From NCBI GenBank assembly GCA_963719515.1, contig CAVRCJ010000003.1, forward strand, positions 640,001 to 704,000: a DNA stretch of 64,000 nt. The letters run 5' to 3'. The DNA comes from an uncultured cyanobacterium. GTDB taxonomy: Bacteria; Cyanobacteriota; Cyanobacteriia; CAKZMO01. The notes below the pieces were generated by a model. It made no database searches, had not been told where the DNA came from, and worked only from the letters and a program-made list of their open reading frames with translations. Shown one piece after another: positions 13,407-58,243 of the stretch; positions within the stretch are counted from its first letter, which is position 1; every line of letters starts with the position of its first letter. The translations under genes were made by a program, and so were the position numbers.

Positions 13407-13482
13407 CCTAAGAGACCGACATTAAGCTAACCTAAACGACGTCAGAAATCACCTGCCACACCCGCAAAATTTCCGCCACGCT
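13407..13482 (-). repeat. diverged direct-repeat copy of the 3' end of the amylo-alpha-1,6-glucosidase gene (partner 21859-21934)
   Basis: Ungapped 76-bp alignment, 59/76 identical by hand; reads SVAEILRVWQVISDVV* versus SVAEILRVWRAISEGI*. Confidence 0.85.
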
Positions 13483-13800
13483 GGCCCTCACCCCCGGCCC
13501 CTCTCTCAACGCTGATACCGCTGGCGAATTTCATGTCTTGTTACATCTCGGCTATTTCCTGCCCCGGAGAAGGCCCCCTAAATCCCCCAATTCTGGGGGA
13601 CTTCAGAGAGGTTAGAACTCCTTAAAGTCAATAGCCGCGAATAGTATGGCCACTGCTCCGGTTCCCCCAGAATTGGGGGTTAGGGGGCCTCGAAGGCGTA
13701 CAGCTCGATTACGAAATATTTCGCCAGTGGTATCAACGCTGGGAGAGGGGAGTCTGATTCCCTCCCCTCGGAATTGAGGGAAGGGCTAGGGATGAGAGCC
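13483..13800. repeat. REP-like palindromic element interrupted by a MITE-like insert
   Basis: GGCCCTCACCCCCGGCCCCTCTCTC...GGGAGAGGGG...CTCCCCTC...GGGAAGGGCTAGGGATGAGAGCC arms. Confidence 0.7.
13514..13734. mobile_element. 221-bp MITE-like insertion with 15-bp TIRs and 6-bp target duplication
   Basis: GATACCGCTGGCGAA / TTCGCCAGTGGTATC (14/15 inverted match); AACGCT at 13508-13513 and 13735-13740; inner palindrome AGGCCCCCTAAATCCCCCAATTCTGGGGGA..TCCCCCAGAATTGGGGGTTAGGGGGCCT. Confidence 0.75.
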
Positions 13801-13941
13801 TCCCATGGCGCTAAACGGTTACCAGGGGAAACGCCTAGACGAGGTTTATTCGTCAGGGGTCTATAATTTGAGCAGATAAGGATGGCTCGCTAGAGTAATG
13901 AAGAAAGGGCTGGCCTCAGAAGAAGGTAAAACTTAAGGCCT

Positions 13942-17232: not shown

Positions 17233-17583
17233 TTACCGGATAGGTCGCTGCTGCACCAGGTAGCTGAGCACCTGACCGTGGGCCGGGGTAATATGGATGC
17301 CGCGATCGCCAATGGTAATCATCGGAGTCCAGTAGTGGCGCTCCACGTAATCCAGCAGGTGCAGGCGGGCTATAGCGTCCTGCACGCCGACCGGGGAGCC
17401 AATCAAGAGGTGCCGTAAGTGCTCGCATCCTGGCGCGGGGGATGGTTCTACCAACGTGGGGATATGAGGATCGGCTTCCATAGGCGAATCTAGCCGTGCG
17501 GCGCGGTCTGCCGCGAGCTGTTGGCGTACGGCGAGCTGGGCAGCCTCTTGAACCAAGGGCAGCCGAGGATATTGGATTGTCAT
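17233..17583 (-). CDS. small hypothetical protein, HxxIGSP family copy 1 (start MTIQYP at 17583)
   Basis: LRHLLIGSP..AIARLHLLDYVERHYWT..GIHITPAHGQVLSYL shared with 46166-46450 and 57812-58243; GGAG SD. Confidence 0.75.
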   Translation of the reverse strand: MTIQYPRLPLVQEAAQLAVRQQLAADRAARLDSPMEADPHIPTLVEPSPAPGCEHLRHLLIGSPVGVQDAIARLHLLDYVERHYWTPMITIGDRGIHITPAHGQVLSYLVQQRPIR

Positions 17584-17772
17584 GAGGGACTCCATTTGTG
17601 TTGTTTTGGAGTCCCCCAAAGAATCTGGACATTCCAGACGTGATAAGGGCTCGGTATGACTCAGGTACAATCGCACAAGGTCATCCAAACAGCTTGCTCT
17701 GTTCTGGTGGCTCAGGGGCTGCATGTTGTTCGTAGCAACATGCGGCTCCGCCAGACCGACTCTTTGGGAGAC
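17584..17772 (-). ncRNA. structured leader RNA, copy 1
   Basis: 15-bp closing stem 17758-17772 / 17611-17625 with two G-U pairs; internal hairpins; alternative 9-bp SD-sequestering hairpin 17586-17615. Confidence 0.6.
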
Positions 17773-17887
17773 TAGAACCATGAGGACCACGGCTCATAGC
17801 TCACTAAGGTAGATCATTTATGCGCTGATGGCAAGGGGCACGTAGCGTTTTTAGCGAGGGGGCTGGCTGGCGAGGGCGGCGGGATAA

Positions 17888-18181
17888 GCGATCGCCATTC
17901 TCCAACGAGTGCTAATTACTCTCGAACAAGCGATCGCCACTCTCCAGTGAGTCATTGCCACTCTCGCACGGATGATCATCACTCTCCCACGAGCGATCGC
18001 TAGTCTCCAACGAGTGGGCATTACTCTCGCAGGAGCGATCGCCACTCTCTGCCAAGCGATTGCCACGTTCCGACGAGTCATTATGGCTCTCGCACGAGTA
18101 ATCGCCACACTTCCACGAGCAATGGCCACGCTCTGACGAGTGATCAGGACTCTCACACGAGCGATCGCCAGTCTCCTACAG
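17888..18181. repeat. tandem array of 14 degenerate 21-bp units
   Basis: Exact 21-bp period with no indels; consensus about GCGATCGCCACTCTCCNACGA. Confidence 0.9.
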
Positions 18182-21858: not shown

Positions 21859-21934
21859 CTTAAAAGACCGACGTTAGATTGGCCTAGATGCCCTCAGAAA
21901 TTGCCCGCCAAACCCGCAGAATTTCCGCCACGCT
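21859..21934 (-). repeat. right-hand copy of the 76-bp island-flanking direct repeat
   Basis: Aligns ungapped with 13407-13482 and has the stop codon at the same position. Confidence 0.85.
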
Positions 21935-23920
21935 CCAGGCCTGGGCAAAGCAGCCGCGCGGGGCGTGGGGGGCATCGCCATCAAAAATTTCGCTGACGGT
22001 GCCTAGGCCTGCGTCTGCTAGATGGTCTGCAAAGGGCTCTAGGTAGGACAACGCCCGCTCTGCGTCTCGATAAACCTTGAAGTGAGCCTGCACAAAAGGC
22101 CCCATCAGCCATCCCCAGACGGTGCCCTGGTGGTAAGCGCCGTCCCGCCGGTAGCGATCGCCTCCGTAGGTCCCCGCGTAGCCTGGGTGGGTGGTAGAGA
22201 GCGAGCGCAGGCCGTAGGAGGTGAGTAGATGAGCCGCCACGACGTCGACGACGGCCTTTTGCCGGTCTGGGGTAAGTAGGCGATCGCCGGGGAGACCATC
22301 GCCGTAGGGCAGCGCCACGGCAAAAATTTGGTTGGGGCGGAGGGTGCTGTTGCTACCGCCAGGAGCGTCGAGCACGTCAAAGCAGTAGCCACTCGCCTCG
22401 CTCCAAAAGCGCTGAAAGCCCTGGCGGCACCGTTCGGCCAGTCGCTCGTAGTCTTGGGCGGGCTTGCCCAGCCGGCGAGCCAGCTCAATCATCACCCGCA
22501 GCGCGTTATACCACAGGGCATTCACTTCCACGGGCTTCCCAATGCGCGGCGTCACCACCCAGTCGTCTACCTTGGCATCCATCCAGGTGAGCTGCACCCC
22601 TGTCTCTCCGGCGTACAGCAGGCCGTCGCCCGGGTCCACTTGAATGCCGTAGCGCGTACCCCGCTGATGCCAGTCCACCACTTCAGCCAGGGCGGGAAAG
22701 AGTTCTGCCATCAGCGCCGTATCCTGGGTAGCGGCGCAGTAGCTGCGAATCGCCTCGAAGTACCACAGAATGGCGTCCACGGTGTTGTACTCCGGATCTT
22801 GCCCTGAATCAGGGAAGAGGTTGGGCAGCATGCCCTGGCTGAGGTGCTGCCCAAAGGTCTGTAAAATAGGCCGGGCCAACTCCGGTTTGCCCGCCGCCAT
22901 GGTGAGCCCCGGCAGGCTGATCATGGTGTCGCGGCCCCAGTCCCCGAACCAGGGGTAGCCCGCGATGACTGTTTTACCGGGGGGCTTGCCGGAAGGGTTG
23001 TCCGGGCCGCCGCTTGAGGGACGATCGACCACAAATGAGTCGGCGGCCAGCACCAGCGGCTGTAGCCAGACTGGAGAACTCTGCTGAGAGGCCTGCCATC
23101 GGGTAACCAGCGCCTCATCCTGCTGCCTCCGGTCATCTAACAGCGCGGCCCCGTCAGTGGGGGTCTGACCGCGATCGCCCTCGGTCGTGGCTACCAGAGT
23201 CAGATCCTGACCGAGCCTGAGCGAAACATTGACTGTCGCCGCCTGGAGGTGAGCGTCGCGATCGCCCGTCCCCCGGTAATGCTCCACCGCTAGCCCAAAG
23301 TGATGCAGCCACTGCGGGTCAATTTGCGGCTGACCCCGGTTGCTTAGGACGTAAAAGGGCGCTTTATTGGGCGCTTCTACCTGGATGCCGCACCCCAAGG
23401 CGCTCACCGGCCAATCTCCGGGAGAGCTGCCGCCGTGGTGATCGCGGTGGTTGACAATTACCTTCAGGGCAAGGTCGAGCCTGGCTCCCCGCGTCAGGGT
23501 ATAGCGAACGCAGGTGGTGTTCTCACCGCGCACCATCCACACCCGCTTTTGTAGCTGCGCCCCCCCAAGGGCGAAGGTCCAGACGGGCACCGTACCCTCT
23601 AGCTCAAAGTGCTCGATATGTCGGTAGCCTTGGGGCTCAACCAGGCTGCCCCAAGGGTCTCCCTTTCCGGGAGCCCAGGCATTGGTAAACAACGGGTAGG
23701 CTTTGCCGCCATAGGTGGCGGTCTCGTCCAGCTTCGTCACCAGCAGCGATCGACCTAAGGGGGGATTGAGGGCCGCTACGAGCAATCCGTGGTAGGCCCG
23801 CGTCAGATGGCCCGCGACGGTCCCGCAGGCGTAGCCGCCGATGCCGTTGGTCACCAGCCACTCCCTAGCGGCAGCGGCCTCTAGAGTTCCACAGATCTCC
23901 CGGCCAAACTGAATCGTCAT
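21884..23920 (-). CDS. amylo-alpha-1,6-glucosidase (glycogen debranching enzyme family)
   Basis: REWLVTNGIGGY, AGYPWFGDWGRDT, QLTWMDAK, YHQGTVW, AQAWSVAE. Confidence 0.93.
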   Translation of the reverse strand: MTIQFGREICGTLEAAAAREWLVTNGIGGYACGTVAGHLTRAYHGLLVAALNPPLGRSLLVTKLDETATYGGKAYPLFTNAWAPGKGDPWGSLVEPQGYRHIEHFELEGTVPVWTFALGGAQLQKRVWMVRGENTTCVRYTLTRGARLDLALKVIVNHRDHHGGSSPGDWPVSALGCGIQVEAPNKAPFYVLSNRGQPQIDPQWLHHFGLAVEHYRGTGDRDAHLQAATVNVSLRLGQDLTLVATTEGDRGQTPTDGAALLDDRRQQDEALVTRWQASQQSSPVWLQPLVLAADSFVVDRPSSGGPDNPSGKPPGKTVIAGYPWFGDWGRDTMISLPGLTMAAGKPELARPILQTFGQHLSQGMLPNLFPDSGQDPEYNTVDAILWYFEAIRSYCAATQDTALMAELFPALAEVVDWHQRGTRYGIQVDPGDGLLYAGETGVQLTWMDAKVDDWVVTPRIGKPVEVNALWYNALRVMIELARRLGKPAQDYERLAERCRQGFQRFWSEASGYCFDVLDAPGGSNSTLRPNQIFAVALPYGDGLPGDRLLTPDRQKAVVDVVAAHLLTSYGLRSLSTTHPGYAGTYGGDRYRRDGAYHQGTVWGWLMGPFVQAHFKVYRDAERALSYLEPFADHLADAGLGTVSEIFDGDAPHAPRGCFAQAWSVAEILRVWRAISEGI

Positions 23921-46165: not shown

Positions 46166-46450
46166 TTACCCTATGGGTCCGTCGAGCGAACGCTGGCGTA
46201 CGAGGTAGCTCAACACCTCCCCTTCGTTGCGGGTAATTTTGATGCCGCCTTCCCCGATGGCAATCAGCTGGGTCCAAAGGGACTGCTCCACGTACCGCCT
46301 GACGTGCAGCTTGTGGATGGCCTCGCGGACGCCTTCGGGGGAGCCGATGATGATATGGCGGATGATTTCGCCGTTGGGGGCTGGGCTGGGGGTAGTCAGC
46401 ACGGTGGGTGCGGCCTCATTGCTGGGCAGCTCGGGATATAGAAATGTCAT
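46166..46450 (-). CDS. small hypothetical protein, HxxIGSP family copy 2 (start MTFLYP at 46450)
   Basis: IRHIIIGSP..AIHKLHVRRYVEQSLWT..GIKITRNEGEVLSYL; GGAG SD. Confidence 0.75.
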   Translation of the reverse strand: MTFLYPELPSNEAAPTVLTTPSPAPNGEIIRHIIIGSPEGVREAIHKLHVRRYVEQSLWTQLIAIGEGGIKITRNEGEVLSYLVRQRSLDGPIG

Positions 46451-46635
46451 GGGGTTTCTCCGTTTTGGGTTAAGAAAGCCCAAAATTTGGCCATCCCGGA
46501 CTGTGGCATGTCTAGGATGGCCTTCTGCCACGGTTTAAGATGGCAAAAGTCCAAGACAGGGCTCTTCTGTCGCGGGCTAGGGCGCGATCGTCGCTGGTAT
46601 CGGCGATCGCGTCCGCTGTTGACCAAATTTTTGGG
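46451..46635 (-). ncRNA. structured leader RNA, copy 2
   Basis: Closing stem 46620-46635 / 46479-46493; internal hairpins; SD-sequestering hairpin 46452-46481. Confidence 0.6.
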
Positions 46636-46728
46636 GAAGTAGAGCTAAGAATTAAACAGCTCTAGGATGAGAGAATAGCGCACTTAGTACAAAGGATCAA
46701 GCCCAAAATTGCATGGAGGCGATCGCTA

Positions 46729-49700
46729 TCAAATCGCTTCTGCTTTTCGCAGTGCCGCTAGCTCTTCTGGCGTGAAGGGGTTTTGGCCAGACTGGAGGGC
46801 GGCTACCCATCGCTCCCGTCGCGATCGCTGCTCATCCGAGAAAATCTGACTATTGTTATCTGCGCTTAGTGCCGACTGAAAATCTGCTAGTGCCCCGTCA
46901 AGGTCATTTGTTAAGAGCTTTGGCCAGCCCTCGGGTATCGAACCATGCGCTCTCATTCCGGATCTAAACTTAACGGCTTTTTCTCCAGCGTAGAGAACAT
47001 CGGCGGCGTGGCCGTAGAGGCAGCCGTTCCAGCACAGTCTATTCCACGAGTGGGCCGAGATGTCGATATTGGGGTCAGTAGCTTGTGCCTGGTGGTAAGA
47101 GGCGATCGCCTCTGGAATTTGGCCGTCTTTGGCAAGAGCTAGCCCTTGGCTCAGAGCCAGAGCGGCGGCAAAGGCTGCCTCTTGAGCAAGCACTGGAGGA
47201 ACGTTCTCAGCAGCATGTATGCCCTCAGCGTTTGCCCAACTCGTCTCAGAATTCCACTTAATATTCTTAAAGTTGGCTCTGATGAAGTTGGCTCTGATGA
47301 GGTTGGCGCTGCTGAGGTCGGCACTGCGGAGGTTGGCGCTGCGGAGGTTGGCGCTGCTGAGGTTGGCGCTGCTGAGGTTGGCGCTGCTGAGGTCGGCGCT
47401 GAAGAGGTTGGCGCTGCTGAGGTTGGCGCTGCTGAGGTTGGCGCTGCTGAGGTTGGCGCTGCTGAGGTTGGCGCTGCTGAGGTTGGCGCTGCTGAGGGTG
47501 GCGCTGCGGAGGTCGGCGCTGCTGAGGGTGGCGCTGAAGAGGTTGGCTCTGAAGAGGTCGGCGCTGCTGAGGTCGGCGCTGCGGAGGTTGGCGCTGCGGA
47601 GGTTGGCGCTGCGGAGGTTGGCGCTGAAGAGGTCGGCGCTGCGGAGGTTGGCACTGCTGAGGTTGGCGCTGAAGAGGTTGGCGCTGCTGAGGTTGGCACT
47701 GCTGAGGTTGGCGCTGCTGAGGGTGGCGCTGCGGAGGTTGGCGCTGAAGAGGGTGGCGCTGCGGAGGTTGGCGCTACGGAGGTTGGCGCTGATGAGATGC
47801 TTTCCAACGACACTACTGAAGCCCAAAACGCGGAGACACTCGCTGTAGCCGATGATCCTGTAAAGCCGCGTCTCCTCAAACGCCTCCGTTTCCGGCTCAC
47901 CGCAGGGGTGAAACATCAATTTGCGATTTCAGCTCCTCTCGCTTCTGCCCATAGCGATGCAGTTCAAACAACAAAATCATCACGTTCAGCCCCGTCACCA
48001 CGTCCACCTGCCGCAGCCCCAAAGTCTCCTCTCGCTCCGGCACCCGCTCCTGCAGATTCGCCATTTTCCGCTGGGGCAGATTGTTCGAGGTAGCGTCGAT
48101 GAACTCCCCCTCCCACCAGCGCAGATAAAACTCCTGCAGCCGCTTAAACAGCGTCACCGGCTCTAGTTCATCGGACTGATCCAGCAGCACGCTCAAATAG
48201 TCCATCACCTCCACCGTCAGCCCGCCGTAGCCCAGGAGGTCATATACCTCCCAGCACATATCTCCATCAGAAACAAGGTATTTATTCCTTCGCCCTTGCC
48301 CCGGCTGAGACCAATCCTCCATCGCATCCCGCAGCCGCTCGGCAAACAAAAACTCGCCAAAACTCTTGTGGGCAAATTCCACCGAGCCTTCCTTATCACC
48401 AGCGGCAGGCTTAAGGTAAAACGTCGTCAGCAAATTGTTGAGCTGCTTTTGCTCAGAATAATCCTCCTCCCGCCTCGCCTCCTGCAGCGCGGCGTACATT
48501 GGGCTACTGCTGTCTTGCTGCAGCCGCGCCTCCAAAAACGACACCTTGGCCGTCTCATTGCCCGACTGCATCACACAGACAGCAGCTTCCGTCAGGGCTT
48601 GGCGCAACGCCTCCGGCTCCAGACCGACCAGTCGAAAGTTCTCGTCCTGACGCTGCTTTTCAATCACCCAGCGCACGGCCTCATCGTAAATCACTACTTT
48701 GGCTTCATTGCCCTGGGTGCCCTCAAACATATCGGCTCGCAGCCGCGTCTCCCGGTGCATCCGCCCCAGCAGATACAGCAGCAGCGGCTCCCGCGCCAGG
48801 GCGTCGTCGGCATCGTGGATCTCTCTGGGGCACAGGGCCAAAAACTGCTGTAGTTGCTCCGTTTCTGGGTCACCAAACTTCCTGGCCCAGTTGCCATACC
48901 ACCGCTCCCGCAGCTCGTCCCCCATGGGCTGCAGCTCCAGCCGCTCCAAATTGTCGGCCTGAGAAATAAGCCGCCCTACATTTTGCAGCGATAGCGGACG
49001 TCCCGTAATCAAAAAGCGGTGGAGGCTACCCTCTTGGAACTGCACCACCTGCCGTAAGAACTCCTGCAGTCCGCCCGTTTTCCGCCCCTCCAGCAGCAGC
49101 TCATCAAAGCCGTCCAGCAAAAACAAAAAGCGGGTGCTACTATCCGTCAGCCAGCCCCCATCAGTGCTGACAAAATCCTGAGTCTCCAGATAATTAGATA
49201 GGGTTTGGGTCAAGCTGCTCTCCAGCGTTTTCAGGTGGCGCAGCCGCACCAAAATTGGTATATATGCCGGGTAAAGCTCAGTTCGCACCCAGTTGGCATA
49301 CATGCGGCAAAAAACGCTCTTCCCCCGCCCCGCTTCCCCGTCAATAAACAAAATCCGCTTCGCATCGCTGTGCATCAGGTGCCCGGTGACCCAAGCCTCC
49401 AGATCTTCCAGCGGCTTATCTTTCAGCGGATTCCCATCGCGGTCCAGCCGCTTTACCTGCAGCGGCACGTAAATATCGTAAAAGCTCAAAGCCTCCTCGT
49501 CAAACACCTTATCCTGTGGCCCATCTTCAATCTGCCGCAAATAATCCTCAATGCTCAGATACTTCGCCTGCTCCTGCCGCCAGTTCTCAAACGTCGGCTG
49601 CCCCAAATGCTTCACCGCCTCCGCAGACGCCGCCCACACCTCGTTCAGGTAGCGCGGAGCGCGCCACTTCACCCGCTCCGTCAGCCGGTGAGCCTCCTCC

Positions 49701-50254
49701 TCCGCCATCCCCGCCTGCACCAGCCGCGCCGCCAGCAGGTCGCCAAACTTCTCCGCCAGCTCACACCTCGGAAAGCTCGTCGCCGCCCGCCGCGCCGCCT
49801 CATCGCTAATTTCCAGCTCCCCAAGCCGCCGCGATCGCTCCCGAATATCTGCCGACGCCGGAACCCGCCCCACCTTCTCCTGCAGCCCCTCGTCCGCTTC
49901 CAGGAAATGCCTAAAGCTCTCCAGATAGGCGGCCTGAGAGGCGATCGCCACACATTCGGCCAAGCTCAGCTGCTTCTGGCTCTTCTCTAGATAAAACTTC
50001 AGCAGCCCCGTGGCAATAGAGACAAACGGCAGCCCCTTCTCCACAATCTCCGCCAGGGGCGAGTTTAGCGCATCCAGCAGCGAGTCGAGCTGCCCCACCA
50101 GCGGTGCCAGCCGCTCCACGTTCTGCCCTTCTTTCTGCAGCACCTCCGCCAGCTCAAAGACCGCTTTCGCGCCTTCCGCCGTCCCCACCGCCGTCTCCCC
50201 CGACAGCAGCTCAGAAATATCGGTGTTCAGAAATCGCCAAAGCCGACTTGCCAT
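46729..50254 (-). pseudogene. NACHT NTPase + pentapeptide repeats + TPR-like tail, split by a +1 frameshift near 47920 (possible sequencing error)
   Basis: GEAGRGKS, FLFLLDGFDE, PLLLYL; junction KSQI-g-MFHPCG; ANLSS repeats. Confidence 0.85.
47270..47790 (-). repeat. 15-bp coding tandem repeat (pentapeptide repeats)
   Basis: AGCGCCAACCTCAGC-type units encoding SANLS/SADLR. Confidence 0.95.
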
Positions 50255-57572: not shown

Positions 57573-57657
57573 TGCGGAACCCGGGACTTGAACCCGGAAG
57601 TCCTTATCGGACACTAGAACCTGAATCTAGCGCGTCTACCAATTCCGCCAGTTCCGC
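57573..57657 (-). tRNA. trnL: tRNA-Leu(CAG)
   Basis: GCGGAAC acceptor stem, TGGTAGAC D-loop, TT-CAG-GT anticodon loop, long variable arm, GGTTCAAGTCC T-arm. Confidence 0.97.
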
Positions 57658-57811: not shown

Positions 57812-58243
57812 CTAATTAACCCCCGGTCCGCTACGCTTTGGGCTGCTGCAAAGCAAGTAGCTCAACACCTGCCCCTCGTGAGGGGTGATTCTCAAGCCCT
57901 CCTCTCGTACGGGAATCTGCGGCGTCCAGCGGTGTTGCTCGACGTAGCGCAGCACGTGCAGCATCCGGATGGCTCGCTCGACGGCTAGGGGAGAGCCGAT
58001 GATGATGTGATGCAGGTATTCGTCGGCGCTATCGGGGTCGGCAGCGCTGAGCTTGAGAATGCTTTCGGGCGCTGGATCAGCGTCGAGGTGAGGCTCGCTT
58101 AGGCGGTTGTGAAAACCGGCGGGGGTTTTGCCGGTCGGCTGCGGTGAGGACTGAGATTGCTCGGGCGAAACCTGCGCCTGCGGCATTGGAAATTGGGTCG
58201 CCGCTTCGCAGTAAAGGGACGACGGGCTGTGTTGAATTGTCAT
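57812..58243 (-). CDS. small hypothetical protein, HxxIGSP family copy 3
   Basis: MTIQH start; LHHIIIGSP..AIRMLHVLRYVEQHRWT..GLRITPHEGQVLSYL. Confidence 0.75.
   Translation of the reverse strand: MTIQHSPSSLYCEAATQFPMPQAQVSPEQSQSSPQPTGKTPAGFHNRLSEPHLDADPAPESILKLSAADPDSADEYLHHIIIGSPLAVERAIRMLHVLRYVEQHRWTPQIPVREEGLRITPHEGQVLSYLLCSSPKRSGPGVN

Follow-up and report, generated by a model that had tools for sequence, protein, structure and literature searches.

Small antisense RNAs with two or three stem-loops, among them CopA/CopT, pT181 RNA I and ColE1 RNA I, are known from plasmid copy control. In these systems, incompatibility is set by loop sequence, and binding of the antisense RNA refolds the leader downstream of the duplex. 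The c4 and CI RNAs of phages P1 and P4 are processed by RNase P from a precursor and have their targets on the same transcript. Type I toxins are usually, though not always, small hydrophobic membrane peptides, and Ibs of E. coli is a short peptide, unlike the product of the cassette described below.

According to PMC5416894, aapA/IsoA modules of Helicobacter pylori have two complementary stem-loops that kiss, encode a 30-aa peptide (AapA) with activation via 3′ processing, and occur at about six loci per genome. PMC2943612 describes ibs/Sib of E. coli as paralogous cis-antisense modules in which two recognition domains, located in highly variable regions, prevent cross-talk, with a U-turn (YUNR) loop in the target. 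There, Sib overlaps the open reading frame (ORF) and the initiation region, and five copies are present. The cis-antisense toxin families of these two papers (PMC2943612, PMC5416894) thus number five or six copies in a genome. The c4 family is listed among Rfam families in PMC2864571.

The cassette described here is carried in three copies, one of them leaderless, by the window, meaning the whole 64,000-nucleotide stretch of DNA that was analyzed. Each cassette is best read as a self-contained, cis-antisense-gated expression unit, with a probability of roughly 0.6. Judged from its sequence, it appears to be a real, uncatalogued cis-antisense-type control at unusual copy number. By analogy, the module would work like aapA/IsoA or ibs/Sib and not like c4/CI, since antisense binding is predicted to close the ribosome-binding site (RBS); the comparison draws on sequence and computation. 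With aapA/IsoA the cassette shares two complementary stem-loops and, as proposed, kissing. It differs in that its protein of 90–130 aa is predicted to be soluble, its five-way junction lies entirely inside the 5′ leader and up to 64 copies exist, and in that its predicted repression is indirect: opening of the closing stem P1 would free a Shine-Dalgarno (SD) hairpin downstream of the duplex. The paralogous modules, the two variable recognition domains and the U-turn-like loop recall ibs/Sib, to which there is no sequence or Rfam similarity. Compared to plasmid copy-control RNAs, the cassette is chromosomal and dispersed, and the gene that it controls is no replication initiator; on Trichormus variabilis plasmid D, though, the replication gene has a leaderless homologue upstream of it. 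Two features of type I toxin-antitoxin (TA) modules were found in computation, namely a leader that sequesters the RBS and complementary stem-loops with variable recognition loops. The cassette is nevertheless not assigned to type I TA, because it encodes no membrane peptide and because its antisense RNA is putative and its toxicity only a possibility.

A preliminary description of this DNA had recognized three ORFs with a common motif, at 17233, 46166 and 57812 on the minus strand, and comparison of their translations bears this out. The family is not limited to these three, however: iterated HMM searches of all six frames of the genome give about 79 ORF matches, fragments included (79 at E < 1e-4). 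The copy 1 ORF (17233..17583, minus strand, likely start ATG at 17583) encodes 116 aa and matches no family. That of copy 2 (46166..46450, minus strand, likely start ATG at 46450) encodes 94 aa predicted to form a beta-alpha-beta homodimer. Copy 3 (57812..58243, minus strand, likely start ATG at 58243) encodes 143 aa and is leaderless, as had been implied; a covariance model run with filters off gives 5.3 bits at best. It is probably a truncated cassette.

Across the genome, leader profiles recover full-length leaders immediately 5′ of an ORF copy, 44 belonging to subfamilies A/B and 20 to subfamily C. This makes 64 complete cassettes, each with a sigma70-type promoter, a leader and an ORF of about 90–130 aa; nine of the 64 reading frames are shorter than 85 aa, mostly being broken or having a mis-called start. 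When the best-scoring boxes near the leader start are chosen as promoter, TTG is present at -35 in 63/64 cassettes and TAnnnT at -10 in 63/64, with a spacer of 17 nt in 52 cassettes and 18 nt in 12. The start codon follows the -10 box at 214–242 nt. In close pairs, 11% of second codon positions in the ORF core differ compared to 33% of fourfold sites, which indicates purifying selection on the ORF. Moreover, leader distance correlates with ORF distance (Spearman 0.73, 48 copies), and thus leader and ORF are inherited as a unit.

The leader is, by computation, a covarying five-way junction. It begins with a 5′ hairpin, P0, continues with the closing stem P1 around P2–P5, and ends with the SD hairpin. 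In copy 1, on the minus strand, the sense promoter consists of a -35 box, TTGCCA (17829..17834), and a -10 box, TACCTT (17806..17811), separated by 17 nt, and the transcript is predicted from sequence to start near 17800. Folding places P0 at 17771..17800. The leader core closed by P1 occupies 17611..17772 (covariance model, 114 bits), with P1 arms at 17772-17758 and 17625-17611 and inner stems P2 (17749-17715), P3 (17703-17688), P4 (17681-17658) and P5 (17657-17631). The alignment reveals two hypervariable loops: the 7-nt L2 (17729..17735) and L3 (17693..17698), which has 6 nt here and 7 nt in 46/54 copies. The SD-sequestering hairpin (17584..17617, arms 17617-17608 and 17593-17584, GGAG at 17593-17590), indicated by folding and covariation, rivals P1 for a G-run. 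In copy 2, also on the minus strand, box scoring gives a sense promoter TTGATC, 17 nt, TATTCT (46672..46700), and the leader core spans 46476..46640 (129.5 bits), with L2 at 46600-46594 and L3 at 46566-46560.

It had been claimed for copies 1 and 2 that leaders of about 160 nt are closed by a long stem whose pairing is kept despite sequence change, and for copy 1 that the 3′ arm of this stem shares bases with an alternative hairpin burying the GGAG. Each part holds: the stem is present in the minimum free energy (MFE) fold, the overlap is seen in the coordinates above, and the covariation check found two-sided changes. Compared to shuffled sequences, copy 1 folds at z -4.7 and copy 2 at z -6.7; among the 64 leaders (25 shuffles each), the median z is -5.5 and 63/64 fall below -3. 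In leader alignments that are fitted to the proposed structure model and whose rows are related by descent, RNAalifold reports two-sided changes in 22/34 pairs, the proposed structure has them in 22/41 pairs with 86% of cells paired (34–47% in slid controls), and a model-fitted 48-row alignment shows both sides changed in 33/41 pairs. A covariance model built from subfamily A/B only recovers 10/16 subfamily-C leaders at full length and on the correct strand. Structure statistics refer to 54 leaders, that is, the 64 cassettes minus four without a locus and minus the six of 16 subfamily-C leaders that the model does not recover. The shared leader motifs listed earlier do exist, in exact forms limited to subfamilies, and the most informative conserved motif, that of the P4 loop, was absent from that list.

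The leader RNA is uncatalogued. In Rfam, copies 1 and 2 have no match near the gathering score, the sole match within the 64-kb window is a tRNA, and none of 20 foreign loci, searched up to E 5, has a family that matches the leader. The nearest candidate of relevance, symR, reached E 0.02 and 33 bits against 61 and was taken as chance. A search of plasmids with one leader query gave no match, and no description of the leader/ORF element was found in the open literature, motifs never entered in Rfam being outside the scope of that search. As far as its available text goes, the screen of PMC12873609 is limited to the flanks of KEGG orthologue groups, and therefore would not anchor on the cassette ORF. 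The leader model matches 29/141 cyanobacterial genomes in eight families, and an ORF of the cassette family comes next at 24/27 foreign leader loci; the exceptions comprise one assembly gap, one contig end and a single weak match. A metabolite riboswitch was considered and rejected, given no Rfam match at gathering score and the one ORF family downstream at those 24 loci.

The P4 loop carries A-T-n-n-T-A, the reverse complement of which is a -10 box. In 83 aligned leaders (54 from this genome and 29 from 27 other genomes), the opposite strand reads nAnnnT in fixed columns in 83/83 and TAnnnT in 66. A near-invariant T, which is an A on the antisense strand and a candidate +1, lies 6, 7 or 8 nt from the hexamer in 83/83. 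A scoring matrix derived from the cassettes' own sense -10 boxes rates the best antisense hexamer at P4 at a median of 5.5; that region read as sense yields 2.3, and the region next to it 1.4. Whether the motif is paired or unpaired in the sense fold varies among copies, so that a DNA signal fits better than an RNA contact. The leader thus probably hides a convergent antisense promoter, as its sequence suggests. This promoter has no conserved -35 box, a strict promoter scan at copy 1 gives no site on either strand, and a U-rich end is present in only 41/83 of the predicted antisense RNAs.

The predicted antisense RNA is about 85–105 nt long and runs up to the 5′ end of P1. In most copies it would fold right from its first base, giving two stem-loops that abut each other and are complementary to P3 and P2. 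In copy 1, the putative antisense -10 box TACAAT (17666..17671, plus strand) lies within P4, and the predicted cis antisense RNA of about 95 nt (17678..17773, plus strand, 3′ end uncertain) spans P3, P2 and the P1 5′ arm; its MFE structure differs from the two-hairpin fold. In copy 2, a candidate box TAAGAT (46536..46541, plus strand) would give an RNA of about 93 nt (46548..46640, plus strand) with two abutting stem-loops from the first base and a predicted fold of -43.6 kcal/mol (z -4.1). In metatranscriptome run X1 (contigs, share 0.04), contigs of relatives span the leader, the ORF and also the promoter; they are strandless and possibly derive from DNA.

Wobble pairs can indicate which strand uses a helix: a helix used in the sense RNA should tolerate G-U, and one used in the antisense RNA should show A-C when read as sense. 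In P2, the A-C:G-U ratio is 56:14 in this genome and 44:1 in the 29 leaders of 27 other genomes, with the antisense-favoring wobbles spread across many positions. Inner P1 has the opposite bias, with 2:59 here and 0:32 in the foreign leaders. Counted as minimum changes on the tree, these ratios become 50:6 for P2 and 1:33 for inner P1. In addition, the P2 hairpin is stabler on the antisense strand in 46/54 leaders of this genome and in 29/29 foreign ones. Control hairpins show no strand bias (P0 28:33, SD 33:26), and the bias is mixed in this genome for P4 (38:46) and P5 (20:16). The extended P5 region is stabler as antisense in 37/54 copies here, though it lies outside the predicted antisense RNA.

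Single-stranded DNA too can yield a G-T wobble bias. The P2 and P3 hairpins might be REP/PATE-like signals in single-stranded DNA, recognized by an HUH transposase of the host through which the cassette is spread, with the bias reflecting DNA folding. The 64 dispersed copies have differing neighbors, and IS200-type transposases occur near some copies in the genome, which would suit this explanation. It is quite improbable, however, as the hairpins are internal to the cassette, the cassette ends have no terminal hairpin, inverted repeat or fixed junction, and the opposite-strand -10 box with its fixed +1 would be left unexplained.

The apical loops change faster than fourfold sites. Seven-nt L2 loops are distinct in 41/41 cases and follow the pattern N-Y-R-N-n-R-N, which we take to be U-turn-loop-like. 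Position 2 is a pyrimidine in 41/41 and position 6 a purine in 34/41, a pattern that reads alike on either strand. In 21 close pairs, L2 differs at 51% and L3 at 47% of sites, compared to 5% in stems. L2 and L3 together differ at 139/284 sites and fourfold sites at 147/464 (Fisher p 3e-6), in pairs that are not independent and were picked by non-loop identity, with the mis-framed pair L016/L035 left out of the fourfold counts; in the three closest pairs, the values are 18/41 for loops and 9/89 for fourfold sites.

These loops also bear on the likeness to P1 c4 and P4 CI proposed in the preliminary description. In a system of that kind, a P1-closed cloverleaf would be excised from the sense transcript and repress by pairing with targets on it. 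A multi-arm RNA with a long closing stem (about 15 bp) in the leader of a small gene is indeed common to both, inner P1 favors the sense strand, and the ORF family is met in phage-like HTH contexts. However, the longest complements of L2 and L3 in their own cassette average 5.15 and 5.17 nt, at the chance level given by other cassettes (5.0 and 5.06 nt), in a test of same-transcript targets that covered L2 and L3. There is also no Rfam match, and opposite-strand transcription is indicated. Complementarity between L2 and L3 is likewise only at chance level. The c4/CI reading is thus very improbable, and the evidence favors an opposite-strand cis antisense RNA; the parts of the earlier interpretation that survive are that the RNA is uncatalogued, that it is a switch or an antisense-type module, and that RNA and ORF disperse as one unit.

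Alternatively, the loops could sense external RNAs, either phage transcripts or by tRNA-like decoding, so that the copies form a sensor array switching on a defense protein. L2 has an anticodon-loop-like geometry of 7 nt, and upstream neighbors are often defense, TA or mobile genes (25/37 annotated). Seven bases, however, provide little specificity in trans, and the symmetry of the loop pattern on both strands is what a kissing sense/antisense pair needs, which makes this possibility very improbable.

The SD hairpin covaries, and its competition with P1 is closely balanced. P1-closed and P1-open (SD-closed) states differ by a median of 1.7 kcal/mol (IQR -1.4 to 4.7). Freeing the P1 3′ arm changes the median SD hairpin energy from -6.0 to -13.6 kcal/mol, and the hairpin gains more than 2 kcal/mol upon P1 opening in 53/54 leaders. 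Antisense binding was simulated by blocking the leader stretch that the predicted RNA would cover; the median cost of opening the RBS then increases from 4.9 to 10.8 kcal/mol, with a rise of more than 2 kcal/mol in 47/54 copies. In copy 2 the cost increases from 3.3 to 5.4 kcal/mol. Copy 1, which is among the 7/54 that switch little, has an RBS that is closed either way (12.0 vs 12.9 kcal/mol).

The near-equal energies of the two states would also suit a purely cis-acting leader switch without antisense RNA, which either resembles a riboswitch or binds a protein, for instance the ORF product, and in which the P4 motif serves as a nuclease site or as a contact at the RNA level. Conserved junction bases and the predicted homodimeric protein agree with such a switch. 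It is nonetheless unlikely, since it explains neither the tolerance of P2 for A-C over G-U, nor the opposite-strand -10 reading at fixed spacing whatever the pairing of P4, nor apical loops that outpace fourfold sites.

In the cis-antisense model, to which the computed elements (cassette, covariation, competing helices, opposite-strand -10-like motif, wobble bias and fast loops) contribute and for which we infer antisense transcription, kissing and repression, the sigma70 promoter would produce an mRNA with a leader of about 220 nt able to close P1. P1 closure would consume the G-run and leave a weak hairpin at the RBS, which would be the translatable state. The convergent promoter within P4 would produce an antisense RNA of about 95 nt with two stem-loops, which would touch L2 and L3 of the mRNA loop-to-loop and then zip into a duplex. 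This duplex would strip away the P1 5′ arm, allowing the long SD hairpin of the off state to form, and may also be cleaved. Because the antisense RNA would be copied from the same DNA as its target, recognition would be copy-specific; changes in the loops would give each copy its own specificity, and dozens of paralogues could coexist without cross-talk.

More tentatively, and with rather less than even odds, the approximately 64 cassettes may be chromosomal orthogonal antisense modules, the largest known set per bacterial genome, that control an undescribed soluble toxin or regulator. If this is true, the gene family exchanged protein control (HTH repressors elsewhere) for control by RNA, and its later spread relied on the diversification of two 7-nt loops. 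Loop-coded copies by the dozen would then be a natural experiment on how RNA specificity diversifies, and cyanobacterial engineering would gain a ready-made library of orthogonal switches of translation.

The cassette also gives a direct handle on a widespread uncharacterized protein family. The ORF product has no match in Pfam, NCBIfam or PHROG, and the ESM Atlas yields unnamed cyanobacterial clusters only. Among structure resources, a PDB sequence search gives a best E of 0.49, Foldseek finds nothing with E < 0.001 in PDB or BFVD, and the best VIA-align Z is 4.1, so no fold was assigned. None of these family and fold searches ties the ORF to the icd/kil/ant-type genes that lie downstream of c4/CI RNAs, although a remote kinship may exist. 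A tblastn search of phages with one query gave no match. AlphaFold2 (mean pLDDT 76.7) models a disordered N-terminus, a strand at 27–36, a helix at 38–50 and a strand at 79–88; the sole helix has 13 residues, and the model is no membrane peptide like most type I toxins. The homodimer reaches ipSAE 0.60 (best control 0.00) at pLDDT of about 75, with runs sharing at least 90% of contacts; this ipSAE mark is reached by 20/30 solved homodimers and 1/23 single chains. The product is thus predicted, by modeling, to be a soluble beta-alpha-beta homodimer.

The homology family has 630 representatives at 50% identity, is found in 24/201 genomes of the phylum, and has named homologues in Elainellaceae cyanobacteria, so that a filamentous cyanobacterium belonging or close to Elainellaceae is the probable host. 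A long leader is present at 4/28 foreign ORF loci. The upstream ORF examined at leaderless loci encodes an HTH or RHH protein in 13/23 cases (seven from one genus), a count that leaves out the HTH gene of locus L081, seen by eye, and in which L074 yielded no candidate. Plasmid loci that were viewed have an HTH or RHH neighbor in 4/6 cases. Since leaderless homologues often adjoin such genes, the gene is suggested to be always under tight control, and tight control by repressor or RNA suggests in turn that the product is harmful or needed only briefly. The homologue on Trichormus variabilis plasmid D (L138, NC_021575.1) is leaderless, divergent from parG and upstream of replication and primase genes. 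At L073, L074, L076-L078 and L082 (family f7), viewed by eye, the ORF mostly follows a short hairpin or a pair of them; their arms are usually HIP1 sequences and their loops L2-like, possibly a minimal form of the leader. Leaderless ORF copies of the divergent type also occur in the genome of the window; by eye, those at C5:122426 and C14:59752 face an HTH gene and that at C14:6058 a transposase-like gene.

Similarity between cassettes usually starts no farther than about 100 nt from the -35 box and fades near the stop codon. Spanning direct repeats occur at 6/64 cassettes compared to 3/64 control sites. An insertion sequence or MITE was rejected, because the ends vary around the -35 box and stop codon and direct repeats are near the control level. 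As the promoter is part of the cassette, the cassette moves as DNA. By nearest neighbors only, in 60/64 cassettes, with classes assigned by hand and no genome-wide control, 25/37 upstream neighbors with a Pfam match are of restriction-modification, TA, TIR/STAND, Uma2, XisH or transposase type, compared to 4/34 downstream. HIP1 octamers lie within 80 nt upstream in 30/64 and downstream in 16/54, compared to 9% of intergenic controls, flanks being partly inherited. On sequence grounds, the cassettes probably spread by recombination with accessory DNA and not by a transposase of their own. At C1:181052-182054, a leader is split in two by about 780 nt of other DNA, with the ORF behind it still intact.

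Copy 1 lies within an 8.4-kb islet whose site is empty in three relatives (G203, G204 and G216) and holds other cargo in a fourth, G201, where an orthologous cassette begins about 10 bp past the repeated gene end, followed by different cargo. On both sides, at 13409-13482 and 21866-21942, the islet is bounded by the 3′ end of a glycogen-debranching gene, duplicated as a direct repeat that has diverged (74 bp, 78%); besides copy 1 it contains a caspase/FGE gene and a pair of XPB-type helicase genes. Gene-end duplication, as seen around copy 1, was rejected as a general cassette feature. A palindromic repeat block at 13484-13816 has 94–97% identical copies on contigs C11 and C1, one of those on C11 adjoining a partial leader of subfamily C that is an orphan. 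The copy 1 promoter has directly upstream of it, at 17887-18176, a HIP1-rich 21-bp tandem repeat of about 14 units. A NACHT ATPase gene and a pentapeptide-repeat/TPR gene (46729-50254) stop about 30 nt short of the copy 2 promoter, and a tRNA gene (57573-57657, Rfam), judged to be Leu from its anticodon, lies about 155 nt downstream of copy 3.
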